From Lagopus muta (taxonomy: Eukaryota), in assembly GCF_023343835.1 (NCBI RefSeq), contig NC_064433.1:177435076-177499075 (forward strand): a stretch of 64,000 bases of DNA, written 5' to 3'. Within the stretch, counting starts at the first letter, position 1. Each line of letters begins with the position of its first letter. The position numbers were made by a program, and so were the translations under genes. Below are positions 8,331 through 56,151 of this stretch, in pieces. Below the pieces are notes generated by a model, which ran no database searches, had not been told where the DNA came from, and saw nothing but the letters and a program-made list of their open reading frames with translations.

Positions 8331-8684
8331 AGGAAAAGTGTTTGTGCTTTCAGGACAGATTAACTACTGTGGCTAACACCTCATACCTCCACAGCATAAT
8401 ACTCTCAAGCCACAGACATTTCAGCCAAGATACAACTAAACCACTCCAGCATCATAAATACATAAAGCAATTCTTCATTTGAAGACTCCTCAACATCAAT
8501 GCCTTGTATCTCTGATGCTCCACGGGGAGCAGGTGGACTTCCACACCCATGTGATTCTGACTGAAGCCTAGCACCAAAATATGAGCTACTTAAAATAAAC
8601 AAGTAGAAAATACAAAAATTGTTTTAAAAAAGCTGTGTTTGTTATTTTTTTGATTGTGAAATTTAGAGAATTTCTGAAAGACAC

Positions 8685-9130
8685 TGAGGCTCTGGAGCAC
8701 GTCCAGAGAAGGGCAACAGAGCTGTGAGGGGTCTGGAGCACAAGGCTTATGGGGAGCAGCTGAGGGAACTGGGATTGTTTAGCCTGGAGAAGAGGAGGCT
8801 CAGGGGAGACCTTACTGCTCTCTGCAACTGCCTGAAAGGAGGCTGTGATGAGATGGGGGGAATCTCAGCCAATCGGCCACTGGATAACAGCGACAGCACC
8901 AGAGGGAATGGCATTAAGCTGCACCAGGGGAGGTTCGGGTTGTATGTTAGGAACTTCTCAGGAGTAGCAGTGAGGCAGTGGCACAGGCGGCCCAGGGAGG
9001 TGCTGTGCAGTCACCATCCCTGGAGGTGCTCCAGAAACGTGTGGATGCAGCACTGAGGGATGCGGTCGGCGGGCACGGGCTGACGGTTGGACAGGGTGAT
9101 CTTAGAGATCTTTGCCAACCTCAGTGATTC
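8685..9130 (+). mobile_element. CR1 LINE 3' fragment in MPHOSPH8 intron 1, about 500 bp from the CpG island.
   Basis: ORF2 C-terminus [27 protein letters not shown]...[11 protein letters not shown]. It ends in a CR1-like tail. Confidence 0.75.
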
Positions 9131-9631
9131 GGTGAAGGACTCGTATGAAAACATGCAGGCTGCTCTCAGCGGAACGAGAGAAGGCAAGAGAATTCTGCCT
9201 AACACAGCCTGGAGGCAGCCTTATTTCAGCCGGAGAAGGTCCGCCTGCTCGGAGCGGCCCTCCCACAGCCGCGCTGCCCAGCCCGGCACCGCCGCAGCTC
9301 GGGCACAGCGCAGCGCACAGCTTCGCGCCGCCGACAAAAAGAAGTTTGCGAAGAGACGCGGGGTTCCACCGCTCTTTCGGCCGAGGCGGGAAGACGAGCC
9401 GCGGAGCCAGCAGGGCCGAGTAACGCCCGAGCTCTGCACGGCGGCGCCCGGCGATCCCGCACGCGGCACGGGGGCGTAGCCGAGGACGGAACCCGAACCC
9501 GCGCCGGGGCCGCCGCTTTCCGCGGCCCGGTGCCGCCCTCCCGCCGCCGGAGGGCCCAGCAGCCGTTCCCGGTGCCGCCGCGGCCCCCGGAGGGCGGCGA
9601 GCCGTGACGGGAGACGGCGCCGCGCGCTCAC

Positions 9632-9892
9632 CCCCTCGGTCTTCATGTCGAGGATCTTCTCCACTTCGAACACGTCCTCGTCCTCATTTTCGTCGTCCTC
9701 GTCGTCCTCCTCCTCCTCCTCCTCTTCCTCCTCGCTCTCACCGCCGGCGGCCGCCGCCCCGCCCGCAGCGCCGCCGCCATCCACCACCTCGTTTTCCCCG
9801 GCCGCCGCCGCCGCCGTCTCCGTCTCCTCCTCTTCCCCCGCCCCCTCCAGCCTGGCCGCCGCCGCCTCAGCCCCGCTCCTCGCCGCAGCCAT
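9632..9892 (-). CDS. MPHOSPH8: MPHOSPH8 coding exon 1: start codon at 9890-9892, acidic poly-E/D tract, first half of the chromodomain (DVFEVEKILDMKTEG). Donor GTGAGC lies immediately 3' of 9632.
   Basis: Minus-frame translation MAAARSGAEAAAARLEGAGEEEE...EEEEEEEEEDDEDDENEDEDVFEVEKILDMKTEG, then GTGAGC. It matches the human MPP8 N-terminus (...GEDVFEVEKILDMKTEGG). The exon lies in a CpG island. Confidence 0.8.
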
Positions 9893-10100
9893 TTTGGGCC
9901 GAGTTTCAAACGGCGATGGGGAAAAGCGGCTGCGACACCCACGGCAGCCAATGGGCGCCCGGCTGCCGTGACGTCACGGGAGGGGCGGGGCTACCCGTCC
10001 TCGGCGCGCTGCGGGCGGCTGCGCCTTTGGGCGGCGGGCTTCGACGGGCGGATGGGGTCTTCGTGTGGGAAAAAGTGGTGAACCTTTTGTTGCTGCGCTA
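9893..10100 (-). promoter_or_regulatory. MPHOSPH8: MPHOSPH8 core promoter and 5'UTR inside the CpG island (island about 9200-10100). It carries CCAAT (9948-9952), a palindromic CRE TGACGTCA (9969-9976) and an Sp1 GC box GGGGCGGGG (9982-9990).
   Basis: CpG density is very high. The canonical CCAAT/CRE/GC-box cluster lies within about 100 bp upstream of the ATG at 9892. There is no TATA box. Confidence 0.55.
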
Positions 10101-28553: not shown

Positions 28554-29089
28554 CTGGAAGAGAGGAAAAAACAGGCATAATCTCAGTTTATAACTGTACA
28601 GTGAATATGCTTTACTTGTACAAAATAAAATTGTGATTCGTGAGGATAGGGAATGAAAACAAAACATTTAATAGGGGTAGTAACAGAGATCTTTTCTAGA
28701 AAGATTATATTAATCTTTAAAGGTATAGCTGCTATTTACATACTATATTCTTTCAAACATCATTCACTTGAAGACAAACAAAACAAAAAGGATTCAAAAC
28801 AACAGAATTATTCATCTGAGAAAAACAGAACCTATCAGTTTGAGGAATGAATACTGCACAAAGTCACACAAATCTTGCACACATATTTCCTAGGATTAAA
28901 GTTCCTTTTAAAATGCATGGCAGAACTTCTAAGGCAGAGGAACAGCTATAGAGAAATTAATTTACCTTTATCTTAAGTTTATGCGTCCAACTGTGTAGGC
29001 TTTCAATGCTATATGGCATCTCAATAGACATATCCAAGGAGAATCTGCTAAATAAGGAGAGTAGAAGTAAATGGTGGTCATTTGAATTA

Positions 29090-29890
29090 CAGAATCACAA
29101 AATGCAGGGCTGGAAGGAACCTCTGGAGATCCTTCAATCCAACCCTCTCCTAAATTAGGTTTCCCTATAGCAGGAAAGCATCCAGGTTGGTTTTGAGTAT
29201 CTCCAGAGATGGAAACTCCACAATCTCTCTGAGCAGCCTGTTCCAGTGTTCTGTCACTCTGACAGTAAAGCAGTTCTTTCTTGTGTTAGTATGGAACTTG
29301 CTAGTTAGTTAGTTAGTTAGTTAGTTAGTGGTTAGACCCTGGAACAGGCTGCCCAGGGAGGTTGTGGATGCCCCGTCCTTGGACGTGTTTAAGGCCAGGT
29401 TGGACGGGGTCCTGGGCAACCTGATCTGAATGTGTATGTTTGGTGGCCCTGCTAGGCAGGGGGGGTTGGAACTACATGATCCTTGGGGTCCCTTCCAACC
29501 CGGGTGATTCTGTGATTCTGTGATTCTGTGATTCTGTGATTCTGTGATTGCTGTGTTCCACTGTGTACCTGTTGCCTCTTGTCCTGTCACCAGGCACCAC
29601 TGAAAGAGCTTGGCCTCATCCACCGAGCTCCCACTCATTAGATATTTATGAGTGTTGACGAGATGCCCTCTCAGTCTTTTCTCTAGGCTGAACAGTCTCT
29701 CAGCTCCCTCTAAGGGAGGTGCTCCAGGCCCCTAATCATCTTTGCAGCCCTCTGCTGTACTCTCCTGTGGTTCTCTGTCTTTCTTGAACTTGGGAACCCA
29801 GAACTGGACAGAGGACTCCAGTTGTGGCCTCATGAGGGCAGAGTAGAGGGGAAGGATCGCCTCCCTAGACCTGCTGGTCACGCTCTTTTT
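29090..29890 (-). mobile_element. CR1 LINE 3' fragment, interrupted by a nested plus-strand CR1 fragment at 29330-29548.
   Basis: Reverse-complement CR1 sequence lies on both sides of the insertion (cacaaaatgcagggctggaagg... and ...ccaggcaccactgaaagagcttggcctcatcc...). The nested copy carries ggaacaggctgcccagggaggttgtggatgcc...ccttccaaccc(gtgattct)5. Confidence 0.65.
29302..29330. repeat. (TAGT)n microsatellite at the CR1/CR1 junction.
   Basis: ctagttagttagttagttagttagttagtg. Confidence 0.9.
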
Positions 29891-32800
29891 AACATACTTC
29901 TGTATTAATGTGTGTGGTTATTCCTTCCCAGATGGAGAGGACTCTACACTTGCCCTTGTTGAAGCTCATGAGGTTCCTCTCCACCGAAATAATGATTAAT
30001 CTGCATGCCAGGATGTCACTACGAGAATGAGCTATGTTTCCTGTCCTATTTAACTGTCTAGATGGAATGAAGAATTCTGAACTACTTCGACAAATTTCTG
30101 TCCGAAAGAGTTACCATGCTGATTCCCAATGGGCATTCACAGGTTAAAAGGTCAGAATGGAGAAGACGTCGTTTGACATGACTGTCTGTATAATATGTTA
30201 TGTAATGCAACCAACTATCTCTTCATTTTACCCAATGTTTTTATTTATCTAAAGCGAAACTTCTTAAAAGGCTATTAAACTAGCTTTCAGAGAAGGCAAG
30301 TTCATCATATTTCCCTGTGTAACTGTTTCAACAATCTTCACTGCTAAAACTATACTTATTTTTAATTCAGCTTGAACTTTCAGTCTTCTTCGTTTATTTC
30401 TGTAATGACATCCAAAGCAACTTGATAGGTGGTATCACAGAAAACAAGAAATAAGATGCATACAAAACACAAGATAGCATATAATGTTTCATGGAAACAC
30501 TTCCCAGATTGTAGCTGGAGCTCAATGTGTGTGGCCTACAGGCTGTTTTCGTTGGAGGTGATGGGTTTTTTTCTTCGTTGTTTTTTAAATTTCAGCCAGT
30601 CTGGCCTCATAAGTTTATTTTCTCTCTTCACTACTTCTTTGTTAGCACATTTTGGGATTGCATTAGCTACTTTTGCCATATTATCACAATGGTTGTGCAT
30701 TCCAGGTTGTTTACTTACCACAATGCTGGGTTACAGATAGTCACTATATTCCAGGATATAATCTCCCAAGCTGTAGGTCTGTAGGGCTACAACTATTTCC
30801 TCAGTATGTAGTTTTGCATTAGCCAGCCTTACAACACTTTTGTCCAATGAGTCCCCTTTAAAAAATACTCTTGACTATTTGGAGTCCTAACCTTGGTATT
30901 ATTGAATGTACGATGGATTTGTGCATCCTTTGCAATGTGTAAGAGCAATTATTTTCTACCTATAGTCACACCTCCATTATCCTTAAGGTGCTTGTGGATA
31001 AAATGTACAGTGGGTATGTACAGTCCCAGAGCAGCTGCAGAACCAGACTGAAGCCAGAAAATATATATCACTAAGCATTATAGAAATGTTTGCAGCTATC
31101 TTGAATGTCTTTGTATTGCTGATTCTAGGACCTGATTCTGGAAAGAGTGAAGTAGTGATACCTGAGCTCAGTCCTCACACAGTAACTGTTCTTAAGTGTT
31201 TCCCCACTTACTATATTTTCTAGCTGAATTATCCTTTCACAACAAAATTAAATTAAATCATTATTTTAAATACCTTTTCTACAACAGGATGTGTTTTGTA
31301 AGAACTTGTAAATTTGTTCTTGATGTATTTATGCCAGAAATGGCACCAGATCTTTAGCAAGTCAGTACAGTATTTCTACTAACCAACAGTAATTGTACTG
31401 AATAAAAGCAAGGTAATAATAGGGAGCATTATTTCAGGATTAAATACAAGTTGAGAAAATTGCAATGGATGTGGCTTTGTGCCAGCTTTGCAGATAGAGC
31501 AGAGAAGAAACAAGAACATGCTCATGAAAAACTCTTTTCATGTGCTTCTAGTAAGGAAAATTCAATTCCCTGAAAAACATAAGTTTTAACATATTTACTG
31601 CTACCTGCATTCCTTGTGATTCTGATGGAGGATGGCCTTATGCAGAAACATTTCTGGGAATATTTTGTTTACGAGAAGTCTTACTTTGACAACAGCATTA
31701 TAGTTTCAGATAATTGTATTTTTAATTTAAAATGCAAGTGCAAAGGCTAAAATGTTAAGTGCAGTGATACTGAAAATATGAAGATCATGTAGGCTCATTA
31801 AGCTTTGTGACTTGGGAATTTATGTATAATCCTTAGTAACGGAAATGTCTCTGAAACAAAGGGAAGTATTTGTGATATTACCAATCTAAGGATAACAACA
31901 GATAAGAAAGAAAGATGAAATTAAACTAGTCTCTCAATGCAAATTTCAGAGTAAATAGAACAAGGTTAAACACACACATTTTAAGTGAATGATTTAAAGG
32001 TATAATAAGTAAAATAACATTAATGAAAGCAACTTACTTTTTCAGTGTTTCTACTTGTTTAACACAAATCTTTTTTATTGTATCCTACAAAAAAAAAAAA
32101 AAATCTTATATTGCACCAGTTACGAAATCTTGGCATGTAATTCCCGATACTTCTGATACTTCAGCTGGAGCTCCTTCTATCACTAAAATGGGATTGCCTG
32201 CAACCTTCTTTACGTCATTCATTCATACAGCCTTGTCATCCAAGTATCAGTGCAGCTAAAATTCAGCTGAATTTGCATGTGCTTGTCTCCCAGAGGCACA
32301 GTGAACTTCAGAACTCCCAGTAATACAGCTCTGAAGCAGAAAGCACGACTAGTCAGACATATGACACAGCTATATGAGCTCATGAGGACTAGGACCACAA
32401 GGACCACCTGTGGCTCCTTGCCAGCATTTAAACAGAGATGACCTCCCCTCCCACCTGTACAATTCATGAGCCATCAGGGACATCAAAAGAAACAGATGGG
32501 AAACCTTATCAGAGAAATAAGATGGATAAAAGAGAGTGTTCAGCAGATGCTTAGCTGCTGTTTAATGATGGAGATTCACAATGCCTGATTTCCTAAAGCG
32601 CTTTAAAGGAGGAACAGAAGCACAGATACAGCAGATAACTCAAAATACAAAATTTAGTTTAACCATGTTCCAACTCAAGTCAACTTCTGAAGTTCTGCCT
32701 GAGTAAATAAATCCTTAGACATCCTACAGGCTTTCCACCAATCACACCACTCCTAAGTTTGTGTTCACAATGCTTTGTCATAACAAGAGTGACACAAATG

Positions 32801-33894: not shown

Positions 33895-34026
33895 CTGCCC
33901 AATGATGTGTGTTCCATTGACAAAAGCTTCAAATCCACAAACAGCAGCTTTATCATCCAAAGGAAAAACATACTTAGCTTCAATTGGACTACTGTTTTGA
34001 TTGGTGTAGGTCTGAAACATCACTAC
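33895..34026 (-). CDS. PARP4: PARP4 exon (VIT domain).
   Basis: VVMFQTYTNQNSSPIEAKYVFPLDDKAAVCGFEAFVNGTHIIGQ (44 codons). Acceptor tattcatttcag|GTA, donor CAG|GTAAAA. It matches human VIVFQTYTNKSHVPIEAKYIFPLDDKAAVCGFEAFINGKHIVGE. Confidence 0.75.
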
Positions 34027-35534: not shown

Positions 35535-35818
35535 AGAATTTCAGTGGTGAGTGGAGACAGGACAAGGGGAAATGGCCGGAAACTGGAGCATAGGAAGTTC
35601 CGCACAAACATGCGCAAGAACTTCTTTACAGTGAGGTGACGGAGCACTGGAACAGGCTGCCCAGGGAGGTGGTGGAGTCTCCTTCTCTGGAGATGTTCAA
35701 GACCTGCCTGGATGCCTACCTGTGCGACCTGCTGTAGGGAACCTGCTTTGGCAGGGGGGTTGGACTCGATGATCTCTGGAGGTTGATCAACCCCTACAAT
35801 TCTGTGATTCTGTGATAA
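35535..35818 (+). mobile_element. Young CR1 3' fragment. It is the inverted partner of 45690-45970.
   Basis: ...ggaagttccgcacaaacatgcgcaagaacttctttacagtgaggtgacggagcactggaacaggctgcccagggaggtggtgg...gatcaacccctacaattctgtgattctgtgat. Confidence 0.8.
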
Positions 35819-35966
35819 AAACAGTTTCCACTCAGCTTCAGGACTTCCCTTTATTTAAAGACTGAATTGCCTCTTTTTTTTTTTTTTAATGGTTAAAACA
35901 CTTTTTAAGAACTGAAATAATTTTTCAGGTCTGACATGGAAGAAGACAATACATAGCATACTTTAC

Positions 35967-36091
35967 CTGTGCTACAAAGTCTATTATCCTTGCCTTGATA
36001 TGAACACTTTCCAGAGGAACAGGATTTCCCAGTCTGTCTTGAAGACCAATTTTCACTGTATTTGAAATATTTGCACTGGGTAATTCATAGC
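35967..36091 (-). CDS. PARP4: PARP4 exon.
   Basis: (S)YELPSANISNTVKIGLQDRLGNPVPLESVHIKARIIDFVAQ. Acceptor cttttctttag|GC, donor CAG|GTAAAG. It matches human YQLPDAKTSSSTKAGLQDASGNLVPLEDVHIKGRIIDTVAQ. Confidence 0.65.
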
Positions 36092-36634
36092 CTAAAGAAA
36101 AGAGTGTGTGAAATGTTTAATTTTTTTTTTTAAATGTACATTTGGGAAGCGAGTTTGATAGTAATCCTATATCAATGGCCTGTGTTCATTTATGCAATTC
36201 AGAACATGTAAATTGAAAATAACACTCCTTTTCTGTCATGAATGCTTGCACTGCATTGTTGAGCTGTAGGCTATCTAAGGGATCAAGAGCTCACAATAGG
36301 TCTTTAAGGTCTTACAAGGTCTTTGTATAAAACCTTGCATTTGAATTATTAAAAGACCATTTGATGATTCATGCAGAAGTGCTTCCTGTGCTTCTCTTGA
36401 AACATGCAGTGACAGGAGGAGCTGCAACAACTGCTGGGAAATCGACCTATAAGGAAATCTGCTAAATAGATGCTATACAGATGCTACCTTGTAATGACTA
36501 ATTTAGTAACACCCACAAATAAACTGCAAGTTATCTTTTAATAAGTTGGCTGGATGCAAGAATTCTAAAAGTTGTGACATATTTATAGGGAATGCAGGTA
36601 GCAAGTCAATATGCAAACAGAAAACATTTCTTAC

Positions 36635-36797
36635 TCTCATTCTGTGAATGACACTGTGACTCCAACTCAGTGTTATCTTGCTCAGTTTGCACCCCAATTT
36701 CAGGCTGGAATTGTTTTATTTGATCTTCAGCGAGGCAAAACTTAACAACGTATCTAATTTTAACCTGTGTAGTTTTGTACACAACAAATTCATCATC
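36635..36797 (-). CDS. PARP4: PARP4 exon (C-terminal part of the PARP catalytic region).
   Basis: DDEFVVYKTTQVKIRYVVKFCLAEDQIKQFQPEIGVQTEQDNTELESQCHSQNE. Acceptor tttctaccag|GAT, donor A|GTAAGA. It matches human DDEFVVYKTNQVKMKYIIKFSMPGDQIKDFHPSDHTELEEYRPEFSNFSKVED. Confidence 0.7.
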
Positions 36798-37197
36798 CTG
36801 GTAGAAACAAAGAAAGCTATTTTACAATAAGAACAAAGCTCTAGATAACATTTTAAAAAATGTCTATCTATTATGAGGTAAACCTAAATGACATCATTTT
36901 TATAAGTAATAAGTAATAATTTCAATATCACAGATTGGATACTTACAGGATAATTAAGTAACAATAAATAAAGAATACTAACATATTAAATATTACTTTC
37001 CAGCAAGAACTTCCAATCTCTTCATGACTAACAACTTACAGCCTTACCTGTAAACCTGACAAAAATGATTTTATGTTTTATTGTCTAGTGATTTAGTGTC
37101 TGAACTGAGACATACAGGTTATACTACTTCTATTATCTATCAATGGTATAAAAAAATCCCAAAGTTGGTGTCTTCTCAACTACTGTAGGATCAGTAC

Positions 37198-37381
37198 CTC
37201 AAAGTCTGAAGAGATGCCTGCTGTTGTGCGCACTCCGTGCACGCTGCTGTAACCTGATGGGGCAGCAGTTAATGAAAAATCTCGTTTGTACAAATCTAAG
37301 CAGGATCCAAGTGCCACATCACAAACCGCCAGGAGTCGGGTTCCATCCATTTCACTGGGTGAAGAATACTTAATGCTGGCA
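37198..37381 (-). CDS. PARP4: PARP4 exon (PARP catalytic domain).
   Basis: (S)ASIKYSSPSEMDGTRLLAVCDVALGSCLDLYKRDFSLTAAPSGYSSVHGVRTTAGISSDFE. Acceptor ccttacgtacag|T, donor GAG|GTACTG. It matches human TSIKYSHPGETDGTRLLLICDVALGKCMDLHEKDFSLTEAPPGYDSVHGVSQTASVTTDFE. Confidence 0.75.
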
Positions 37382-37603
37382 CTGTACGTAAGGAAAGATC
37401 ATGCATCTGTTATTACAATTGATACTGATGTAAACACCGTCAGAATTTCTGCTTACACAAGTACTTCTGAACAGATGAGGAGGAAAAATTAAATTACTTA
37501 TAATTAAATACCTTTGAGATTATTAAACATTACATCTACTTCATTTGCAAAGTAAAAAGAATACACAAAGGATAAAGTAAAAAGATACTGTCATTATTCA
37601 GAC

Positions 37604-37702
37604 CTGACAGAATCACTGAAGTAAATGCCGCTTCCCAGATTCCCAGTGTCAGTTCTTTCCACACCATGATCTTCAACAACCACTTTTGGCATTAGGAGTC
37701 CT
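37604..37702 (-). CDS. PARP4: PARP4 exon (PARP catalytic domain).
   Basis: (R)GLLMPKVVVEDHGVERTDTGNLGSGIYFSDSV(S). Acceptor tctctag|A, donor AG|GTCTGA. It matches human RGLLLPKVVEDRGVQRTDVGNLGSGIYFSDSLS. Confidence 0.75.
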
Positions 37703-38740
37703 CTAGAGAGAAAAAAATCATTCACATGATGAATGAAGTTCAAGATACTTCTGCATAAAGTATGTGGGAAGGTACACACTGTGCAGTTATGAACCACAGA
37801 GGACTAAATCAAAATACACCTTACAGAAACAACAGGAAAATAAAGTATATAACAAAAAATAAATCCCAAAGCCATGTGAATCACCAAGACACTGATTATA
37901 TAAGCAAGTAAAGACTGCTTTTTTCATTTAGCAGAAAACAATACATTTCCTGGAGTCACTGCCAAATATTCAAAATAATTTTTTAGATGTGTTATTAGAT
38001 GAGTAGTTCATAGCATCATAGAATCATGGAATCACCAAGGCAGAAAAAGACCTCCCAGATTATCTAGCCCAACTGTTCACCTACCACCAATATTTCCCAA
38101 CTAAACCATGTCCTTTGTCCCACACCTGTATGTTTCCTGAATACAAGTTCTACATTCCTAGCAACTGTGCTGTATTAAATTTCAAACAACCTGCATGAAA
38201 TTTCTATATCAAACCAAAAGAAGATTTTAAGGTAGTAGGGGATGGATGCTCAGAAACTTCTCCAGGGTTTGATTTGCAAATCTGTTAGTGTAGTGATATC
38301 ATTCTTAGACTGCTCAAGAGACATTTGATTTGCTGCTGATTGATCCTCACACAAAGCCTTTTAATACAAAGTATGCAAGAAGACAAAACATTTATCTAAG
38401 TTGAACTGTTTTGTCACTTAAAAAATTTGCAATATAAGGAAAACAATGCTAATATGACTTTTGAGATTATTTCTCAAGTACTTTGATAGCACTGTGTCAC
38501 ACATTTTTTCCAACATTCTTAAATTTTCAGTGGCTGGCATTCATTGCATAAGATGCTGATGAGGATGATAAGATGATGAGGATTTAAAAATGTTAGGCAA
38601 CTTGTATTAGATTTTAGCTATGAATATTAAAACCAGGCCTGAGTGAATTCACAGAATTCAGTAATTAAACCAGATGTTGTTGTAACAGAAAATTATCATC
38701 ATCTAAAAATTTGTCATTTAAAGTGGTCACAGGCAAATCA

Positions 38741-39178
38741 TGGAATCAAATCATCTGAGTTGGAAGGGACACTTAAAGGTCATCTAGTCCAACTCCAGCT
38801 GCAGTGAAGGGACACCTACAGCTCAGTAAGTTGTTCAGAGCCCCATCCTGCCTGACCTGGAATATCTCCACCACATCTCCAGTGCCTCATCAAACTTCTG
38901 TCAAAATCCTTTTTCCTTATGTCCATTGTAAACCTTCCCTCTTTCACTTTGAAACCATTTCCCCTTATCCTACCACAACAGACCCTACTAAAGAGTCTGT
39001 CCCCTTCCTTCTTATAGCCCCCCCTTCAGACACTGAAATGCTGCTCTCAGATCTCCCTGCAGCCTTCACTTCCGCACTCTGAACAGCCCCAGCTCTATCA
39101 GCCTGTCCTTGTAGGGAAGCTGTTCCATCCTCTGGGTCATTTCTGTGGCCCTTCTCTTGTGCTCTAAAAAATAATGTA
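38741..39178 (-). mobile_element. CR1 LINE 3' fragment.
   Basis: It starts with the reverse-complement CR1 tail (catggaatcaaatcatctgagttggaagggacac). Confidence 0.7.
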
Positions 39179-39498
39179 TAGAAGTAGGAGGACACCATCA
39201 ATGGACTTATTTCCTAAAAGAAAATAAATTATCCACATGGCCATTATTCTCCTACTCTCTCAATTTTGTCATCTTTCATCTGGATTTAAACTTCACTCCT
39301 CTTCGTCTTACTCAAACAGCTGCATCTCAATGCTAATCCAGCTGTAAGGTAATTACAAAAGGTTGATTTTCCTTCCTGCAGAAGTGTTTAAGTATTCATA
39401 TAAATGTTGACAGTAAAAATTAATTTAAACATAATGCAAAAGAGCTTCAAAAAAAGCATTTTTAAAGATGAAAATATACAATTAAAACATATCCAATG

Positions 39499-39541
39499 TC
39501 ACACATACACACACACACACACACATACAAAAAAAAAAAAA
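39499..39541. repeat. (AC)n followed by (A)15 microsatellite, 20 nt downstream of a PARP4 5' splice site.
   Basis: cacacatacacacacacacacacacatac(a)15. Confidence 0.9.
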
Positions 39542-39560
39542 AGGGAATGTATATTTTTAC

Positions 39561-39698
39561 CTGGAAAGAATTCCCATGAAATTCCTTACAGATGATGCAT
39601 GGAATAAAGACCGAACATTTCCAAGACTGCCCACAAATTCTGCTGTTTCACTTACTCTGCCAATCCTGTATACTTGTAAAATTCTCACTGAACAGCCA
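39561..39698 (-). CDS. PARP4: PARP4 exon (PARP regulatory/catalytic region).
   Basis: (N)GCSVRILQVYRIGRVSETAEFVGSLGNVRSLFHASSVRNFMGILS(R). Acceptor ttttttgcag|T, donor AG|GTAAAA. It matches human KSPVDVLQIFRVGRVNETTEFLSKLGNVRPLLHGSPVQNIVGILCR. Confidence 0.75.
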
Positions 39699-40055
39699 CT
39701 GCAAAAAATTTGAGAAGATCTTTGATTTAGAAAATGTGTACCTGAAGCCCTATTCATTACTTTCCAAACGTTTTGTAAAACACTTGGAAATAAATATTGA
39801 GAGGGAAAGTGAGCAAAACTAAAAGATAAATATCTTATTCTCCTATAAATAGACATGAAAAACTGAATATGAGCATTTTCAGTTTTTTCAACTTCCATTT
39901 GACTCTAGTGTAGGTAAATCCACTTGTTCTGCAATCCTGTTAGCTAATCAGTACTACCAAGTAGCAGAACCTGATAATTCAGTGCTACCTAGAAGTATTT
40001 TGTGCATGACAACTTGCATGCTACTGGAATCACCGTATAACTGTTAAACACTCAC

Positions 40056-40216
40056 TTGTAATTGTTTTTTAACACTTGTCGTTCAACACTGAGAAATTCG
40101 TCACTCATTGGATCAATGGCATCAATCTTGCACCTCAGGGCCTGGTATTTGGCCAGAGATGATGGGTTTGGGCACGACATACTTGTTTCCCGTATATTCA
40201 GCATGTCTCGCATGAG
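40056..40216 (-). CDS. PARP4: PARP4 exon.
   Basis: LMRDMLNIRETSMSCPNPSSLAKYQALRCKIDAIDPMSDEFLSVERQVLKNNY(N). Acceptor tttcctag|CTC, donor AA|GTGAGT. It matches human LIRDMVNVCETNLSKPNPPSLAKYRALRCKIEHVEQNTEEFLRVRKEVLQNHH. Confidence 0.75.
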
Positions 40217-41754
40217 CTAGGAAACGAAGACAGAAATTTATGAATATTTGATACATTTTAATTAAGAAAACACACAAAACAGAATAAAATTATATGCAGT
40301 GACAGTGTAGTAACAATGAAAAGAGCATGCAAGAGAACATTTCCACTTACTAGATAAAAAAAGTGGAACTAAATCCCATGAAAACAAATCAGAACTAAAA
40401 AGGTGTTTGAATAACAGTGATAAATGACTTCTGTACAACTCCAAAGTCTGGATGGAGGCTGTTCATGACAGCTCTGCCACACAGTATTTGTGCTCAGATA
40501 TCATTTTGCTTTTGATTCTGAGGCAATTTTTATTTAGCTTGCAAACTTGTCATATTGTCCCTGATGCCACCATCCAGTTAGAGCAGTAGAGTATGGCATT
40601 CATATAATTTTCTCACATCAGGAGAAAGAAGGGCATTGAACAAATAAACAAAGCAAAGAAGGCTATACTTCACTGAGTCGTGGCAAAGCTTTATGAGACA
40701 TTGTAATTTTTTTTATATCAGAAGTATCAAAAGGTTTTCATTATCAAAAGGTTTCCGAGGTTAAAAGCACTATTAGTATTTATTCTTTTAGAACAACAAA
40801 GAGCTTCTCTTCCTCTTTTCCCCTTAATTTCTTGTAACTTAAAGAAGATTAGCTTGTGAGTGTCTTTTGCCAAAACCAAGAGCTATGGCTGCCATAATCT
40901 ATGGAATTTACATCATAACTGAATCACAAGGAAGAACATTCCAGTTTGCTCTATAGTTACAACTGTGAGATCAGTGTCAGAGCCCTGAGTGTCCCCCTCC
41001 CCTCCCAAGGCTCTGGCTGCTGGGGCTCAGGGCCAGTTTTGATGGTGCAGCTGCAAGGCCTGGAAGAGAGCAGTGGGAAGACTCAGTAGAAGCCTGCTCC
41101 TTCTCCATTCGAGAGATATCTTTAAGCTGAGGCTTTTGCCCTTGGTCTCTTTGCTGAGCTATACTGCAGATATGTTCAGACCCAGTTCCTGTGGACTTGA
41201 GTTCCTTGTCTGACTGCAGACAAGACAGACAAGCCCACAGTGAGGCTCGTCTGACCCTGTCTAATGTCACCAGCAGTCACTGTAATCTACTCTGCTCATC
41301 CTAATTGGGTGCTGTGGGACTGTGCCCCTGCCACTGAAGTGACTGCCCTAGCCTTGCTCTCTTTCACTCCAGCCCTGGCTCTCTGCCCTCATAGCCACCG
41401 GGTGCAAGGGCTGCATTTATGTGCATACTCAGCACACCTCACTGTCAGTCCCCCAGTCAGGCTGAGAATTTCCCAGCTACTTTCTGCAGACGGACTGATT
41501 TGCAGCAGAGTAGCTGAACACCCAATTGACTGAACGACTGAGCAGCTTACAAATGAAGTGACAAATTAACACAGGAGCAGTGGAGCTGTGGGAGAGATCC
41601 CTAGAGATGCCCCTAGGCAGAGCAGCTGTGCTTAGGCCTACTGATAGATGCTGCTTGCAGTCCAGGGAACTCCCCTAGGTTGTTGTAAATGTAGGAACAG
41701 ACCAAACTATACAGAGATAATTAACTTCAAATTATCTCTAGAAATTGTTTCTGC

Positions 41755-42790
41755 ACAGACATATAACTACCAGAGGGAGTCCAGTGGAAGGCTACAAAGA
41801 TGATTAGGGGCTTGGAGCTTCTCCCTTAGGAAGAAAGGCTGAGAGATCTGGGGCTGTTCATTCTGAAGACTGAAGGAGGATTTTATCAGTACCTATGAAT
41901 ATCTTGTGTGTGGGTGTCAAGAAAATGGGACCATGCTTTTTTCATGGTGCCCAGCAACAAGACAGCAGACAATGGGCACTAAGTGGAACACAGGAAGTTC
42001 AATTTGTATATAGTTTATAACAGCCAATAGAAACTGATTGTGTGTGCTGGATAGTTGCCAGCATCAGCAGGATGATAAACATCAGTTCTGTGAGTCTCAT
42101 TTAATCCAGCTTCAGATGTCATTCATAACGAATGCAGTGGAATCTATCACCATCTAGATGGCAACTGGCCTTCCTCTTCAATGTATTCAGTTCAGTTCCC
42201 CCTGTGAATGTTACCCTATTTGTAAGATTCCCCATGGGAGTTGATTGTACCCCTGTACTCAGCACTGGCGAGGTTGCACCTCGAGTACTGTGTTCAATTT
42301 TGGGCCCCTCACTATGCAGAAGACACTGATGTCTTGGACTACGCCCAGAGAAGACCCAAATGAAGCTGGTAAAGGAGCACAGATCTTACAGGGAACAGCT
42401 GAAGGAACTGGGATTGTTTAGTCTGGAGGAGACTCAGAGGAGACCTATCTGTTCTCTACAATTGCCTGAAAGGAGCTTATGGTGAGATAGATAGGTGTTG
42501 GCCTCTTCTCCCAGGTGACTAGCAATGGCACAAGGCGGAGTGGCCTCAAACTGCACCAGGGGAGGTTCAGGCTGGATATTAGGGAAAATTTCTTCTCAGA
42601 AGAAAAAGCGAAGTACTGGAACAAGCAGCCCAGGGAAGTGCTGGTCTTACTGCCCTTGAGGTTTTCAAGATAAGAGTGGATGTGGCACTGAGGGACACGG
42701 TTAGTGGCATGGTAGGGATGGGTTGATGGTTGCACTGGATGATCTTAGTGGATCTTTTCCAACCTTAACGATTCTATGATTTCAGTAAAT
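41755..42790 (+). mobile_element. Two adjacent or internally deleted CR1 3' fragments (about 41755-42000 and 42185-42790).
   Basis: ORF2 C-terminal remnants (...KMIRGLELLP...RLRDLGLFIL...; ...[16 protein letters not shown]...[19 protein letters not shown]...) and a CR1 tail at about 42780. Confidence 0.65.
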
Positions 42791-42916
42791 TATTTTTTAA
42801 ACCCACAGTCTGACTTGTTGTGCAGTGCAAAATATCCTGTTAATTTATCAACTGATTGTGTTCAGTACTGGTGTAACAGGGCAGACTGGGGCTTACTAGC
42901 AGTCTGGAAAAGTTAC

Positions 42917-43090
42917 CTGGCACAGGTCCTGTTTTCTAGATAACAGCCTTTTGGAAACTTCATAGTCTATTTCAGTTTTGTGACGTATAAGCTGATAGAA
43001 TTCCATCATCATCTCTTGCAGTGCTGCCTCATCAGCTCCCTCATTGAGTGCATTCTTTACCTGAAGCAAAATACCTTCTGCTTTGCTCAC
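42917..43090 (-). CDS. PARP4: PARP4 exon.
   Basis: VSKAEGILLQVKNALNEGADEAALQEMMMEFYQLIRHKTEIDYEVSKRLLSRKQDLCQ (58 codons). Acceptor tcttttaaag|GTG, donor CAG|GTAACT. It matches human VSKAEGILLLVKAALKNGETAEQLQKMMTEFYRLIPHKGTMPKEVNLGLLAKKADLCQ. Confidence 0.75.
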
Positions 43091-45087
43091 CTTTAAAAGA
43101 AGAGATTACTGAACTGAAAAACATTACAAAATTAATGAAAGAGCACAAAGCAATAAATACTGAATGTGAGTGAATTAATTCCATGCTGAAACAAAACTTT
43201 AACTCTTTGTTAGTGAAACAAAGTGCACAAAAATTTACTTGCATCTCAGTGTGAAACCAGTTTTAAAATGTTGGATATTATTCAGCCCTCATACTGGACA
43301 AAGTACCCCAGAAGAGCTAAGAGCCAGTATCATAATTCCTCAGAAGTAAAGCAGAGTTTGAATCATGTTGAAAGACAATGACCCTTGACATTATTTCAAT
43401 TCACATCGTTAGCTTTAATGTACCATTGAAATAACTGCAGAAATAACATGATAATAAATTTCTTGATAAATTTCTAAGTGCACTGGTTTATTCTAAATAC
43501 ATAAAGCTGAGCAAAGTACCATTTATAAAACACAACCTAGTGATCAAAAATAATCTTATGAATCATTTTAGACAGTTTGTATAGACAGGTAGGATATAGA
43601 CTTGCTTGTGTCTCTGTATATTCATTCCCAATTGGAAATTTTTTCACAGAGTACTCTGTTATTTCATGTTATTATAACCACTGGCAACAGCTTGTAAGAT
43701 GCTGTCACTAGAGGAGGCATAGTAGTCTTACTGCAGTTCAATACTGACCTAAGGCTGGACTCGGTCTCACAAAAGCCTTTAGAGGAAATTGGACAGTTAA
43801 TCTAACTGAACAGCAATCCACTTCCTTGTTTCAATAACCCAGAGATTTTTTTCTTTCTACACAAATGCTCTGTCTCTTGCCAACTCATTATAAGTGGGAA
43901 AAGGTAGTGAAAACAGTTTTAGTACACTCTTACAGACTGATCCATTGGGCTGCAGTTCTGTGATTCAGCTTTTTCAAAAGCTATCAGTGATTGGGCATTT
44001 TTAATGAAATTATCAAATATTTATCAAATTTCACCTATTTGAAATAGGTGGGATCTTGATAACCAAACCAAATGCACCTCATAAAAAGCATCTACCACAA
44101 GCAGAATTTCCTTTCTATTTTTACTGTTTTATAAAATGCACTTGCTACTGTCTCTGAGCAAATGTATAAAACAGTACTAATGTACTACTTCTGATGGGTA
44201 CTACTTACCCATCAGAACCTACATAAATGTATATTTCCACATCAAAAAGTGAAAGGATTATTTTCCTATGTAAGACAATCGAAGAGAATCAAGAGCCTTC
44301 TGTCTTAGTATGAGGGCAAAATCATTCTATGTTTAGGCAACTTCACTGGCAAAATTTGTCCAGTTTAAAAACAACCTAATTTCCAGGTTATTTTTTCCTT
44401 CAGTAGTAACAGAAATTAACAAAGTTGCAGTCTTATGCAGCTATAACTTAGATTATATTATATTATAAGTTAAGTTAAATGAATAAACATTAGACTCCTA
44501 AATGTCTAGGAAGGAAAGCAAAACCACCGAAGTAAGTGGAAAAATAGGATTAAATAAACCATAGAGTTAAAGAGGGATGGATAACTAATTACTCTCATTA
44601 ACAGTTATACTATATGAAGAACTTAACAACAGTTAATTAAATGCCAATTATGTGTTGTCTGGTAATACACAAATGCACTATAATTAAAATGATTTTTCTA
44701 ATACTAGAGAGTGGCTGACTGAAATATGGTTGAAATACATTGGCAGAAGACAACAAACTGCTATTCTGCACTATTTTCTGTTACTATCTTCTTAGGGAAC
44801 TTGATTTATTACGCAGAAGGGATCCTACAATAAACATTGTATTTTAAATTTCTATAAGATGGAAAAGACAGCCATCTGCTCTAGGGAGTACAGGATGTTT
44901 TTAGTGTCATAATTCTAAAGCAACATTTGAGGTTAAAATTTCTGAAGCATGAATATGTTGTCATATAGGAATACTCAGTGTAATGACCAATTCTAATGTG
45001 AAACACAACATTCCTGTTTGCTGGGGAAAAATTATTTATAGTAGCATTCACGTACGTGTTCTCATGGAGTAAAAAGAATTAACTTAC

Positions 45088-45225
45088 ATCATTTAGGCTG
45101 ATGTTGTTTACTGATTCAAGCAGTAGATTGTCCAGGTGGCCAAGAGCTTCTGCCCAGATCAACTCCACAAAATCACTAACTTCTTGACATACAGCACTTG
45201 AATTGATGGATTCTTCTAGAAGTAA
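45088..45225 (-). CDS. PARP4: PARP4 exon.
   Basis: LLLEESINSSAVCQEVSDFVELIWAEALGHLDNLLLESVNNISLND (46 codons). Acceptor ttttactacag|TTA, donor GAT|GTAAGT. It matches human ALLLEEVMNSSTLSQEVSDLVEMIWAEALGHLEHMLLKPVNRISLND. Confidence 0.7.
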
Positions 45226-45689
45226 CTGTAGTAAAACAAACACAAATCAGTGTATGGCAAAGATGCAATGTGAGAACTTTCTTGTTCATATAAACTATAC
45301 GGTTTGCAATACACATTAATGCTTAATTTAATTGCTTCAGTCCCATCAACTTGAAGGGAAAGTTTGTCTTTATAAATTCTTCCAAGTGAAGACCACGGCA
45401 GGCAAGTGGCCATGATTTGTCTTTCTGAAATTTCAGATATAACATGCTACAGAATTCAGAAGTTGATTTGCTTGATATCTTTATCATTACATAGTACTAT
45501 CAGCCCTAAGGGCTTGTTTACACAGCTGATAAAAGAACAGATATGAACACTGGAGATAATGTAACTGTAGAAAAAAATTGGAGCAGTAAACTAAAAGGAG
45601 AATAGAAGGGTCATGAATATAATTGCAATTCATACATCCAGAAAGAAAACAGATTTTGTGATCTAGGGAGCACTGTTAAAATATTTACA

Positions 45690-46375
45690 GAATCACAGAA
45701 TCACAGAATTGTAGGGGTTGATGGACCTCCAGAGATCATCGAGTCCCCTGCCAAAGCAGGTTCCCTACAGCAGGTCGCACAGGTAGGCATCCAGGCAGGT
45801 CTTGAACATCTCCAGAGAAGGAGACTCCACCACCTCCCTGGGCAGCCTGTTCCAGTGCTCCGTCACCTCACTGTAAAGAAGTTCTTGCGCATGTTTGTGC
45901 AGAACTTCCTATGCTCCAGTTTCCGGCCGTTTCCCCTTGTCCTGTCTCCACACACTGCTGAAAACAGTCCGGCCTCACCATTCTGCTCCCCACATCTCAG
46001 ATATTTATAGACCTGGATCAGGTCCTCTCTCAGTCTCCTTTTCTCAAGGCTGAACAGACCCAGTTCACTCAGCCTTTCTTCATAGGGGAGATGCTCCAGG
46101 CCCTTCACCATCTTCGTGGCCTTCCGCTGGACTCTTTCCAAGAGATCCCTGTCTTTTTAATACTGCGGAGCCAGAACTAGATGCAGTACTCCAGATGAGG
46201 CCTCACCAGGGCAGAGTAGAGGGGGAGGATCACCTCCCTTGACCTGCTGGCCACGCTCTTTTTAATGCATCCCAGGATGCCATTGGCCCTCTTGGCCACA
46301 AGGGCACACATGGCCAACCTGTCGTCCAGCAGGACGACCACCACACTACTTGAGCATTTTGTCATTGTCATTCTT
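45690..46375 (-). mobile_element. Young CR1 fragment (ORF2 RT C-terminus plus 3' UTR). Its 3' 280 bp are about 98% identical to 35535-35818 in inverted orientation.
   Basis: Minus ORFs ...[42 protein letters not shown] and [47 protein letters not shown]... Tail acagaatcacagaatcacagaattgtaggggttgat. Confidence 0.8.
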
Positions 46376-47077: not shown

Positions 47078-47236
47078 TGTACAAGCCTTTTGTAACTTTG
47101 TAGAAGCCAAACATTCTGCTTCTGGTGGAAAAGTTTCTCTGAGCAGGAAATCCTGGCTCTTCAGGTTTGCAACAAGAATATCATAATTTTCTCTTATTTC
47201 TTCAGCAGTCTTATTTATTATGAATTGTTTATTTTT
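47078..47236 (-). CDS. PARP4: PARP4 exon (3' boundary uncertain by about 20 nt).
   Basis: KNKQFIINKTAEEIRENYDILVANLKSQDFLLRETFPPEAECLASTKLQ(KACT). Acceptor tttcag|AAA is clear. The only in-phase GT I found is the weak ACA|GTTTGT. It matches human RRQFAIKKTSEDASEYFENYIEELKKQGFLLREHFTPEATQLASEQLQ. Confidence 0.4.
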
Positions 47237-47860
47237 CTGAAAATGGAAAGAATAAAGTTAGATGGAGAAACAGATAAACAGATTTGCTGGAACAATTCAC
47301 CAGATGCTACAGTAAGAACTGACAAATCCACACAGCTTTTGGGATGTGATTTAACATGCTGCCAGCAAGGCACTACGACCATGAGGGCTCATGGGACAAA
47401 AAGGGAGCTCCACATGCAAACCCCACAGTGACAAGAGAGTTTCATGTAAGTGTGTACTGGAAAACTTGTTCTATCATTTGAGCTATTTCAAATGCATCCT
47501 CCTTTGACTCTCAAGAGAATGTCCAGTCTATCATTCTTTGCAGCATTTTAGCAGTTAAATATGCCATTCTAGTTTAGTCATTACCAGGCACTTGTATATG
47601 AGTATATGAGGTAGGTGCATCCAGGACTATGCTGTGTTGCTGTCAAGTACCAAACAGTTCTTCTGAGAGATCTGCAGGCAAGCAGTGTAAAAGGGGCCAA
47701 GTATGAACCAGACCTCTTAAAGCTAAGATAATGGCCTCCTACTATGTAAATGTGAGAATCAGCCTGCAAGTAAAAATGAAGAACACCTAGTGCTCTCCAG
47801 GACAGGAGTGCTCAAGGCATACAAAGAAACAAGCAGGAAATGTCAATAAGTGGCTCATAC

Positions 47861-52336: not shown

Positions 52337-54369
52337 TGCTCTCCTGTTAAAACAGAGAAGGGTTTGTTTTTTTCTTTTGTCTAAGAAATCTTTATTTCCT
52401 ACCACCCACCTAAGATTTTACTTATGGAGAGAGAACAACATAATTCATTTGAATTTGGGGTTCCAAGAAAACCTAGAAAATCATCGCTATCAGATGCATT
52501 TCTATATATGCCTGTGTAATCTGAACTATAGGAAAGGCCAAATCAACTACTGCCCTATGCATCTGAGAGAACCAGCAATGTGCTGGTTGAGGTGAGGCAT
52601 ATAGCAGCTCGAGGATCAAAGAGCACATTAAATTGTTATATACTTGTATTTTGTGCCTCTTGTGTTTTACTGTCTGGCATTAGCAGTACATGTGTCATAA
52701 AGTACTCTCTGCTCATGCACAGAATAAACCCTGTAACTCTTTTTTCCATAAGGAGGAGGTTTTCACAAGATACTACATTATCTGAGATGCTAACAATCTT
52801 TTAAGATGCAGACTTATAACTTGGCTCAAGTAGATTAATTTGAGTCACATACAAAAGAAAATGTGCCACTGCCAAAAGCTTCCGATATTAAAAGCGTAGA
52901 GGGCACTGCCTCCTTTTGCACCGATCTCTGCATGCACTGACTTCGCTGCAAATTCTCTACAGCAGACTCTGGACATTGCTGAAATTTCCACAGAAGTCAC
53001 CTCCTCAGGAAATAATGGATTCCATTTGCACAGCCTAACCCAAAAGATTATTAGGAGGTTATTGAAATACATACAAGCCGTCACAAGCCCTGCCAACACA
53101 GTCCTGGAAACTCAAGAAGCAACTGAATTGTTTGTGGTGCAAAACTCCACAAAAATATTTTATATGACACTTCCTTATGAAAGTTATACTGCTAAGGACT
53201 AGGAACAAATACTGAGAGAACTGATCTGTAAGTAAACTTTAAATGAGCCAGTAAGAGGAAAGGAAAGCTTGAGGGAAGGGCAGATTCACTTCCTCAAAGT
53301 TTGCCTGCAAAGTGAAGTTCCCCCCACCTAGCAAACAAAGCTTGTCTCTGCTCCCAGCGTGACAGCTGTCCAATGACTCCTGATCCCACTTCTCTCTGTA
53401 TGTTTTAGGTGAAAGATGGCACTCACCTGCTCAGGCAGTTCCCTGCCTGAAGGACCTTCTGCTTCCCCAGTAGAGTGAGGTGCAAGGGAAGAGCCTCAGT
53501 GGTGGGAGGGAGGATGGGCTAAGGCAGCTCACACCCACCTGAACATCGTCCGAGGGGACAGCAGCAACAGTTGTGACCCTGACAAATAAACAAACCGAGT
53601 GACCAAGTGACGTGCAGCCTTCTGCGGAATAAGGAACACTAACACTTCCGGGGCTTGAGGGAGGAGGAAACTCACTGTTAAAGTGCAAGTGAACTTTGAA
53701 AGATGCTCCAGACAGCAGGAAGTAAAGCTGAAACCTCTTTAGTCTGTACCCAGCAGCTTTTCTTTCTGCTGAGTGAAGTAAGCTTTATTCCCTCTCATTG
53801 CTGATGAATGCTGCCACCCAATATTAGCCTCTCTTCTTTAGCCAATTTCCCCTGAGGATCAAACTTATCAAGGAATTTTAGCAAAGTGTTTGTCTTACTC
53901 TTCTTGAACTGCAGTTTCCAGAATTCAAAATCAGAATAGAAAACGACAACATTTAATGTGAGAGTGAAGAATGGTGAACAGTTTTATAACTGGAATAAGG
54001 CGCTGATGCAGCACTAGGTAAGAAGCTGTGCAATGGAGAGTTGCTGACAACTGTCACTGGTTTAATTCTTGCAGTTTTAATTTATCTCAGTGGAGATCCA
54101 TAATTCCCTAATGACCTCAGAAGAATTTCACACAGGTACATGAGCTTGTAATTATGATTGGCTTGCAAGTTTGGGATCATCATTAGAGATAGATTACGCT
54201 TTTGACAGAGGAGAGCACCAAAGAGAATTTTGTCCTCATTCAAAAATAGACGAAGAATAACCTGCAACTCAATGTGGGCCTTCAGTGTGCAGGGATACTG
54301 AATTTTCATGAGGATGTTAATGCATTAAAGGTGACGTTGTGCTTGAAAAGGAAGGGGTAGAAATCCTTG

Positions 54370-54402
<33 letters not shown>

Positions 54403-55189
54403 TGTTTTTAATATATATTTCCAGCACTGTAGCTTCCCACTCTTAATGCAGAACTCAGCTTCAGGAAAGCTGTGCAGGTGATATATTCATAACTGGCTTA
54501 AGTGCAGGAAAGGTGATGGGAAGTTTGGAAAGAGCCACAGCTGATGTGAGATTTAGCAGTTGGCAGCTGAAAGAGCTGCCCTGGTTTTATGCAGCCGGGA
54601 GCTCGGTCCTGTACCAACGTGCAAAGAGGAGCAAAACCCGGCTCTAGCTGGCAATGTGTCACCAGGCTTTGGAGTGAGATTCTCCACTGTTTGCTGGAGC
54701 TCTGAGGAAACTGTTTTGCTCAGTAAGAGAATTCCTAAAGAGCAAAATGTCAAAAACTCTCTGGTGATGGTGACAGAACGTGAGGGAATGGCACAGAGCT
54801 GTGTTGGGGTGAGGGGCAGGTCAGGTTGGGAGTCTGGAAAAGGTTTTTCAACATAGATTAATGGAGTATCCTGAATTGAGAGGGGTCCGTAAGGATCACT
54901 GAGCCTAACTCCTGGATCTGCACAGGAACAGCCTGCCCAGGGCAGTGGGCACAGCTCTGAGCTGCCAGAGCTCAGGGAGCGTTTGGACAGTGCTTCCAGA
55001 CATTGGGACTGGCTTTTGGGTGGTCCTCTGTGGAGCCAGGGGTTGGACTCAGTGATCCTTATGGGCCCCTTCCCATTGGGAAGGATGGAAAGAAGCCCAG
55101 GTGGTTCAATGACTCCGTAGGCTTTCTGCCACTTATCCTTCCACTCCACCCTTACTGCAGCTATTTAAAATTAAAAGGGCAGAGGCAGC

Positions 55190-55900
55190 TACAAGGAAAG
55201 CACGCTGAAAGCGCACAGCCCCGCCCGCCCAGCAAAGGCACGGCTAGCGCAGATTGCGGGTTCGTTCCGCGGTCGCCTCCTCACTGCCGCCCCCACAGGG
55301 CGGGAAGGCGGGGAGCGGCCCCTCCCCCAGCAACGGGGCGGGGCAGGCATCACCGCCTTCGTGCGCCTGCCCCCGCCCCTCAGAGGCCTAGGCAGGGCTG
55401 GAGGGTTTGCAGTGTCAACCTATTAACGGCATCCTCGCCGCTGAGCATTTTGGGAGCTGTAGTCGAGCGCAGAGAGATCGCTACGGGGCTGCAGGAGGCG
55501 GGCGGCGGCTGGGGACTACAAATCCCGGCGTGCCCCGCGCCGCGCGGCGTCCAGCCTGTGGCGGCGGGAGGCTGTGCTATGGCGGCGCGTTTGTAACTGC
55601 GAGCGGCGGGAGGTCGCGGCGCTGAGTGGCGGCGCTGCTGCGGCGGCGGCCTCGGCTTCGGCCATTTGGAATATTACGCTCTGGGGAAGCTTTGAGCGTT
55701 TCGAAATCTGCTCGTACGGAGTTCTGTAGGAGTTCCGGAAGGGTTCCTGTGGGGATCCCGAAGTGCCGCCGGGCGGTGATGGTGGTGGGAAGAGGAGTGA
55801 GAAGCGAACGCGCAGCTGTTTGTGGAGTTACCGCGGGAAGGTTAAGTGCGAGTTGAAATATGCACAGTAAACCGATCGTGTTCACTTGGGCATCTCTGCG
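55190..55900. promoter_or_regulatory. CENPJ: CpG island at the CENPJ 5' end. It is probably a bidirectional promoter that also serves PARP4.
   Basis: CpG density is very high, with several GC boxes (CCCCGCCC at about 55222 and GGGGCGGGG at about 55336). It lies immediately upstream of the CENPJ first coding exon. No other CpG island exists near the PARP4 5' end. Confidence 0.6.
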
Positions 55901-56151
55901 GCGTTGCATTAGTACGAGGATTTGTGGCTTGACTGCTTCTTATAAACACGATCGGCTGGTTTTAAGAGTGACTTCCCGATGCTGGGAGTCTCTTCCTGTA
56001 GATTTTTTTCTTTTATCTGCTTAATTTCTCGGAGCTAAAAACAAGTGAGCATCCACCCCTGATACTTGTGACTGCACCTTTTACTCCCCTGGCGCTACAC
56101 TATGTTATGTTAATGCTGCATCAGCAATTGCGTTGGAATGTAATTTACAGG

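Follow-up and report, generated by a model that had tools for sequence, protein, structure and literature searches.

Two neutral, lineage-specific CR1 insertions as the probable source of a near-identical inverted repeat around the regulatory and catalytic exons of PARP4 in Lagopus muta

CR1 (chicken repeat 1) is a common retrotransposon of birds. In chicken, its 3' fragments resemble short interspersed elements (SINEs), form double-stranded RNA (dsRNA) and are the main targets of hyper-editing; over 35,000 sites of such editing lie in them (Porath et al., 2017, PMC5625713). Reverse-complementary matches (RCMs) overlapping CR1 promote exon circularisation in chicken, and their deletion lowers the level of circular RNA (circRNA), according to a 2025 review, a secondary source (PMC12658333). 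The formation of dsRNA and the promotion of circularisation by CR1 pairs are already established as concepts; new here is one instance in the gene PARP4. The view of the first-pass annotation, that an avian CR1 equivalent of inverted Alu elements would be notable, is weakened by these two publications. The instance is situated in a stretch of 64,000 nt of Lagopus muta (contig NC_064433.1, positions 177,435,076 to 177,499,075, forward strand), referred to below as the window. It consists of two CR1 copies, A and B, inserted in opposite orientations into two introns of PARP4. They are probably two ordinary, neutral, lineage-specific insertions derived from one young, frameshifted source lineage.

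Copy A occupies 35539-35816 on the plus strand, and copy B lies on the minus strand, with 45687-45963 as the segment common with A. Local alignment of the two gives 278 columns with 265 matches, seven substitutions (five transitions and two transversions) and one 6-bp gap. Identity is 97.4% over ungapped columns and 95.3% with gap columns counted. The gap corresponds to GGGTTG, present in A and missing from B. The longest perfectly identical run is 154 nt. A repeat search resolves the pair into two sets of inverted arms, 35539-35757 with 45745-45963 (219 nt, 98% complementary) and 35762-35816 with 45692-45746 (55 nt, 96%), separated by the 6-bp indel. With 444 bits, the pair is the top-scoring inverted repeat of the whole window; the runner-up reaches 253 bits at 75% identity. 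The first-pass annotation had put the identity at about 98% with one 6-bp indel, which is essentially right, and had placed it far above that of other CR1 copies in the window, which holds as well, the remaining fragments being 67-85% identical to B. The BLAST comparison of the two segments that it proposed confirms the inverted match (E = 1e-126, search inside the window). Its count of about four substitutions is an undercount. Its extent for B, 45690-45970, is too short: B spans 45687-46348 (662 bp) and is bounded by the empty site in turkey.

Both copies are 5'-truncated CR1 3' ends. Copy A (278 bp) retains about 65 last codons of open reading frame 2 (ORF2), the hairpin of the 3' untranslated region (UTR) and 2.25 units of the octamer ATTCTGTG. 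Copy B retains about 190 C-terminal codons of ORF2, the 3' UTR and about 2.9 octamer units. The ORF2 remnant of B contains one in-frame TAG and one frameshift, and that of A has the same frameshift; after correction for a 1-bp deletion, both yield a canonical CR1 ORF2 C-terminus. The corrected translation of B has 7974 protein matches at E ≤ 1e-10, with E-values down to 1e-110, and the top matches are bird proteins named 'Reverse transcriptase'. The closest match (P0051) has the Pfam domain RVT_1. The 3' termini, ...ACAATTCTGTGATTCTGTGAT in A and ...ATTCTGTGATTCTGTGATTCTGT in B, are octamer microsatellites without poly(A), and both conform to the CR1 pattern for which they were tested, an 8-bp (ATTCTRTG)n repeat lacking a poly(A) tail. 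The CR1 octamer is documented in PMC2612034. In A, a hairpin GGGGTTG...CAACCCC folds directly upstream of the microsatellite; in B, the 5' arm of this hairpin is gone through the private 6-bp deletion. The 5' truncation point differs between the copies, and comparison of filled with empty sites reveals a target-site duplication at neither. CR1 insertions are usually devoid of target-site duplications. Autonomous CR1 elements are recognised by an intact ORF2 with endonuclease and reverse transcriptase domains; just the ORF2 C-terminus remains here. A and B are dead copies and no active elements. No family reached the gathering threshold in an Rfam scan of the whole window. ORF2 protein homology, octamer 3' ends and shared indels all agree with the earlier assignment of A and B to the same young CR1 lineage. 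As a separate feature of A, two adjacent private substitutions (TCC to TTG) at 35781-35792 make the loop-side of the hairpin a perfect 12-nt palindrome, GGTTGATCAACC.

The common origin of the copies is recorded in two shared indels. In each copy, a 1-bp deletion (AGGGTGACGG to AGGTGACGG, between FFTVR and VTEHW) puts ORF2 out of frame at a point 38 codons ahead of its stop, and 2 bp are deleted from the 3' UTR (GGTCCATCAACC-type 3' ends). Two further CR1 copies (L003 and L004) and over 40 intact ORF2 C-termini served to judge the derived state of these indels. Both copies therefore trace back to one source that had already changed. Should the 1-bp deletion be typical of the subfamily, its active source would either have had a curtailed ORF2 C-terminus or have depended on mobilisation in trans. 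With L003 and L004 as references for polarity, 2-3 substitutions are private to A, and 4-5 substitutions plus the 6-bp deletion are private to B. This last deletion probably arose after insertion, because it destroys part of the 3' hairpin, which is thought to be needed for retrotransposition. Similarity is limited to the element: it begins at separate 5' truncation points, ends exactly at the 3' microsatellite and does not extend into the flanks. A and B would thus represent two separate retrotransposition products of one young CR1 lineage, placed in opposite orientations in two PARP4 introns of a phasianid-like landfowl. Their likeness would be due to recent copying of the same or nearly the same source, followed by about 1-2% drift in each, and not to selection.

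The window is collinear with a locus of turkey chromosome 1 (L001), which adjoins CENPJ. Turkey has a contiguous empty site for B at L001 14128/14130, corresponding to window 46349/45686. The filled site reads ...gctcaag[B]aaatatttt... and the empty site of turkey ...gctcaagaaaatatttt...; blocks of 10 kb and 4.5 kb around it are 90-91% identical to turkey. Contiguous empty sites for A are present in the storm-petrel Hydrobates (L005 19496/19495) and in the rail Atlantisia (L006, position about 10060). With A in place, the sequence is ...gaaactgttttt[A]ttctcagagatg...; at the empty site, these Neoaves have ...gaaacagtttttattcttagagatg.... The 10 kb between A and B are collinear with turkey, and therefore neither an inversion nor a duplication is involved. 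B was inserted after the split from the turkey lineage, and A would likewise postdate that split.

Two further observations concern the loci used for comparison. In Hydrobates tethys, the orthologue of window 48371-43856, which includes three PARP4 exons, is missing at L005 9188-9181, so that the B site is unreadable there; the missing segment is probably an assembly collapse. In Atlantisia rogersi, an independent CR1 3' end in B-like orientation (L006 5-76) lies beside the orthologue of window 44748, in the intron between the exons designated E1 and E2 below. PARP4 introns have therefore been struck repeatedly by CR1 in different bird lineages.

The Kimura two-parameter (K2P) distance between A and B is 0.026 (2.6% divergence). 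Between the window and turkey it is 0.069-0.074 over 23.5 kb (substitution divergence 6.5-7%), and the divergence of the pair is about 0.37 of this value. On the assumption that the copies were identical when inserted, their age would be about 0.37 of the time elapsed since the turkey lineage split off, which is consistent with the absence of B from turkey. Of the earlier description as a very recent insertion pair, the youth of the copies stands, and 'very recent' is overstated.

The host gene is PARP4, transcribed from the minus strand. Stop-to-stop open reading frames on the minus strand of the window match Pfam PARP, PARP_reg and VIT. A concatenated query retrieves PARP4 and PARP4-like proteins of turkey and other birds, with turkey PARP4-like as the best named match; the gene had been named correctly at first pass. 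Exon boundaries were obtained by mapping a spliced transcript contig of a related galliform from ENA (L002), followed by a GT/AG search. The protein encoded by this transcript has BRCT, WGR-like_PARP4 and PARP domains; the full order that characterises PARP4 (vault PARP) is BRCT, WGR-like/regulatory, PARP catalytic, VIT and vWA. Window exons are 92-98% identical to it, except the second 5' exon (81.5%).

All exons named here are on the minus strand and are numbered in the order of transcription. E0 (47087-47238) is the last exon upstream of B and has a GC donor. E1 (45088-45225, 138 nt) is the first bracketed exon, with its AG acceptor at 45227-45226. E2 (42917-43090, 174 nt) encodes the PARP regulatory (helical) domain. 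The catalytic domain starts in E3 (40056-40216, 161 nt), continues through E4 (39561-39698, 138 nt, containing LFHASS), E5 (37604-37702, 99 nt) and E6 (37198-37381, 184 nt), and ends in E7 (36635-36797, 163 nt), the exon skipped in transcript L002. E8 (35967-36091, 125 nt) is the last bracketed exon, with its GT donor at 35966-35965. E9 (33895-34026) is a VIT-domain exon and the first exon downstream of A. The sum of E1 to E8 is 1182 nt, or 394 codons in an open frame; in it, Pfam recognises the PARP catalytic domain in full (E = 5.6e-34) and PARP_reg weakly. Within the E0-E1 intron, copy B has the sense orientation of PARP4, and 461 nt separate it from the E1 acceptor downstream. Copy A, in the E8-E9 intron, is antisense to the gene and follows the E8 donor at a distance of 150 nt. 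Exon mapping thus agrees with the first-pass placement of the copies in opposite orientations and in two different introns that enclose the regulatory and catalytic exons. The exon block given there, 36635-45225, does cover the regulatory and catalytic core; it misses E8 (36091-35967), the first exon of the VIT region, so that eight exons are bracketed and not seven.

Further features of the gene were recorded. The host intron of B opens with a GC and not a GT donor (AAAAG/gcttgt; window 47086-47085, minus strand), and the donor is likewise GC in turkey (L001, about 13431). Transcript L002 (ERZ21819515, NODE_5648; positions 1736-2049) splices E6 straight to E8. The loss of E7 shifts the frame and leads to a stop 12 codons on, the protein (P0002) terminating ...SSDFEAMNYPVQIFQIQ. 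On the evidence of this sequence, L002 would be a natural exon-skipped PARP4 transcript without the end of the catalytic domain. A 561-aa 'PARP4-like' model of turkey (P0001) does not represent a genuine short isoform: it reads past the E8 donor and stops in the intron (L001 23866-24015, window about 35875-35930). This truncated model is an artefact of assembly or annotation, the assembly (GCA_000146605.4) having a 100-N gap at a poly(A/T) tract followed by unrelated sequence. At the opposite end of the gene, the PARP4 5' exon 53675-53763 (minus strand) is head to head with CENPJ (plus strand, from collinearity with turkey), and the GC content between them is 0.53 at 54-56 kb. This GC-rich stretch (window about 53763-56000) is probably a shared bidirectional promoter.

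When present in one unspliced PARP4 transcript, A and B could form a long intramolecular dsRNA from their near-perfect inverted repeat of about 278 nt. Co-folded in ViennaRNA, the two form 265 intermolecular base pairs with an energy of -568 kcal/mol; once the self-folds are deducted, -382 kcal/mol remain. This is in line with the long stem proposed in the first-pass annotation. No inverted repeat with both arms inside one host intron was found for either intron by the inverted-repeat search of the window. Other cross-intron pairs are at most 85% identical. The next-best partner of B (46051-46134) is an older CR1 fragment in the E2-E3 intron (41777-41860, plus strand), a much weaker competitor with 84.5% identity over 84 nt. 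The next-best partner of A is 29086-29303 (74%). This segment belongs to a cluster of older CR1 fragments in another PARP4 intron (29084-29892), composed of 29086-29303 (minus), 29339-29529 (plus) and 29571-29892 (minus). The cluster contains a close head-to-head inverted pair, is 67-75% identical to A and B, and is a much weaker dsRNA candidate. Elsewhere in the window, the most GC-rich 2 kb (8001-10000, GC content 0.60) lie between older CR1 fragments at 7702-8249 and 8677-9130.

According to the intron-pairing model, developed in mammalian work on inverted-repeat Alu elements (IRAlus), the geometry of A and B favours back-splicing from the E8 donor to the E1 acceptor, and the duplex should attract ADAR. 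The most likely molecular consequence would be ADAR hyper-editing of both intronic arms; such editing is more likely than not, if PARP4 is expressed. Less certain consequences would be a 1182-nt circle, made from E1-E8 by a degree of back-splicing, or a transcript from which these exons are skipped in frame. A detectable circle is possible, though less likely than not.

Several points weigh against the origin of A and B by two ordinary insertions. The A site is unreadable in turkey, where the assembly has a 100-N gap at a distance of 59 bp and unrelated sequence beyond it, and the absence of A is shown only in distant Neoaves; a protein search with the VIT/vWA part of PARP4 for other landfowl and waterfowl loci across the A site returned just Neoaves and non-birds. 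Galliformes have little recent CR1 activity, with intact copies in chicken only and fewer than 20 full-length elements (Galbraith et al., PMC8665684), which makes two insertions of the same lineage 10 kb apart mildly unusual and somewhat unexpected a priori, to a degree that depends on the copy number of the lineage. Other members of the CR1 lineage of A and B were not found in JGI metagenome contigs (frameshift-specific 37-mer and subfamily-specific 33-mer, 0 hits), and the shared frameshift and 2-bp deletion may be private to A and B rather than subfamily-wide. An exact-sequence look-up for alternative alleles, with one open reading frame from the flank of A and one from the 5' junction of B, gave no record. 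The differences between the copies cluster at the ends (alignment columns 6, 7, 11, 34 and 62, indel 217-222, and 245-246) around the identical central 154 nt. If 6-8 events were scattered uniformly, such a run would have P = 0.05-0.012, which hints mildly at gene conversion. On that reading A and B would be older, possibly from soon after the split of the turkey lineage, and non-allelic intrachromosomal conversion would later have made a central stretch of 154 bp or more uniform. The end regions diverge at 7 of 118 sites (about 6%), near the divergence of the window from turkey, and templating of one copy by the other would also yield the shared frameshift and 2-bp deletion. The 2-bp deletion, however, lies at alignment column ~248, outside the identical central tract; the three 5'-most differences are at most 12 nt from the truncation point of A; and the P-value for clustering is marginal and post hoc. 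The level of CpG decay (2 of about 14 CpG copies) agrees with one young age, and an older resident CR1 is not seen at the A site in the outgroups Hydrobates and Atlantisia. The similarity of A and B can be accounted for without gene conversion, which is considered unlikely. The doubling of one sequence by segmental inverted duplication or by mis-assembly is exceedingly improbable. Duplication or assembly collapse can give very high identity over a short distance, but the similarity here is exactly CR1-bounded with nothing in the flanks, the copies are unequal in length and differ by seven substitutions and an indel, and the flanks are collinear with turkey and two Neoaves at clean empty sites. 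Comparison of the flanks effectively refutes both. Segmental duplication, inversion and twin-priming were likewise rejected as modes of origin, the flanks being unique and collinear with three other birds. Derivation of A by local re-insertion of a transcript of B was rejected as unsupported, B being promoterless, truncated and defective.

A different alternative to two neutral insertions concerns function and not origin. The pair would be an inverted-repeat element used or tolerated for a lineage-specific PARP4 circle (E1-E8, 1182 nt, open frame all round) or for an isoform lacking 394 aa, either of which would modulate vault-PARP activity. The geometry is near ideal for back-splicing, with arms 461 and 150 nt from the splice sites, the strongest repeat of the window and no competitor within either intron. 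The length of E1-E8 is an exact multiple of 3, but the prior for this is 1 in 3. The donor of the upstream host intron is a weak GC, circularisation driven by RCMs and CR1 is reported in chicken (PMC12658333), and human PARP4 yields a circRNA, circPARP4. Against function, both copies show neutral decay, with private substitutions, CpG loss and a 6-bp deletion that weakens pairing. B is absent from turkey, so that any function would be very young, and most intronic inverted-repeat pairs are without known function. A search of the paper library for PARP4, circRNA and chicken together found nothing. Such a functional element is highly improbable. Hardly to be expected, too, is that the pair created, within about the last third of the time since the turkey split, a new PARP4 intron-pairing structure yielding the 1182-nt open-frame circle or an isoform without the regulatory and catalytic region. 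Nothing in the analysis indicates a biological function for pairing, editing, circle or skipping, and any function of the pair, of whatever kind, is very unlikely.

Two neutral, lineage-specific CR1 insertions, of which the locus is a clear example, are as they stand of little consequence. A and B could act as presence/absence markers for landfowl phylogeny, and they constitute an especially clean candidate substrate for the CR1-CR1 dsRNA known genome-wide in chicken. Interest would rise only if RNA showed altered PARP4 splicing, either a circle or skipping of the catalytic exons. If that were true, turkey, which is without B, would provide a natural with/without comparison for the rewiring of the splicing of a conserved gene by an inverted repeat derived from a long interspersed element (LINE).

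Compared with primate IRAlus, the PARP4 pair likewise consists of opposite copies of a short retroelement in introns around an exon block, near the back-splice sites, with cross-intron pairing the strongest. It differs in that the copies are LINE 3' fragments and not SINEs and are 97% alike, far above typical Alu pairs, and in that its back-splicing is a prediction. With the CR1-CR1 dsRNA of chicken (PMC5625713) it shares neighbouring, oppositely oriented CR1 3' ends in one transcript; that study is genome-wide and based on RNA, whereas the PARP4 pair is represented by its DNA substrate. Human circPARP4 comes from the same host gene; the avian CR1 pair is lineage-specific, so that any avian circle would be of independent origin. 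The closest counterparts are the 5'-truncated CR1 3' fragments of avian introns. With these, A and B share ORF2 C-terminal homology, the hairpin and ATTCTGTG microsatellite, the lack of poly(A), variable 5' truncation, the lack of target-site duplications, and lineage-specific presence or absence, such as serves as a phylogenetic marker in landfowl. From typical CR1 copies they are distinguished by the frameshift 38 codons before the ORF2 stop and the 2-bp deletion of the 3' UTR, present in both. At about 1-2% from their common ancestor, they are also younger than the usual galliform CR1; nothing essential differs.

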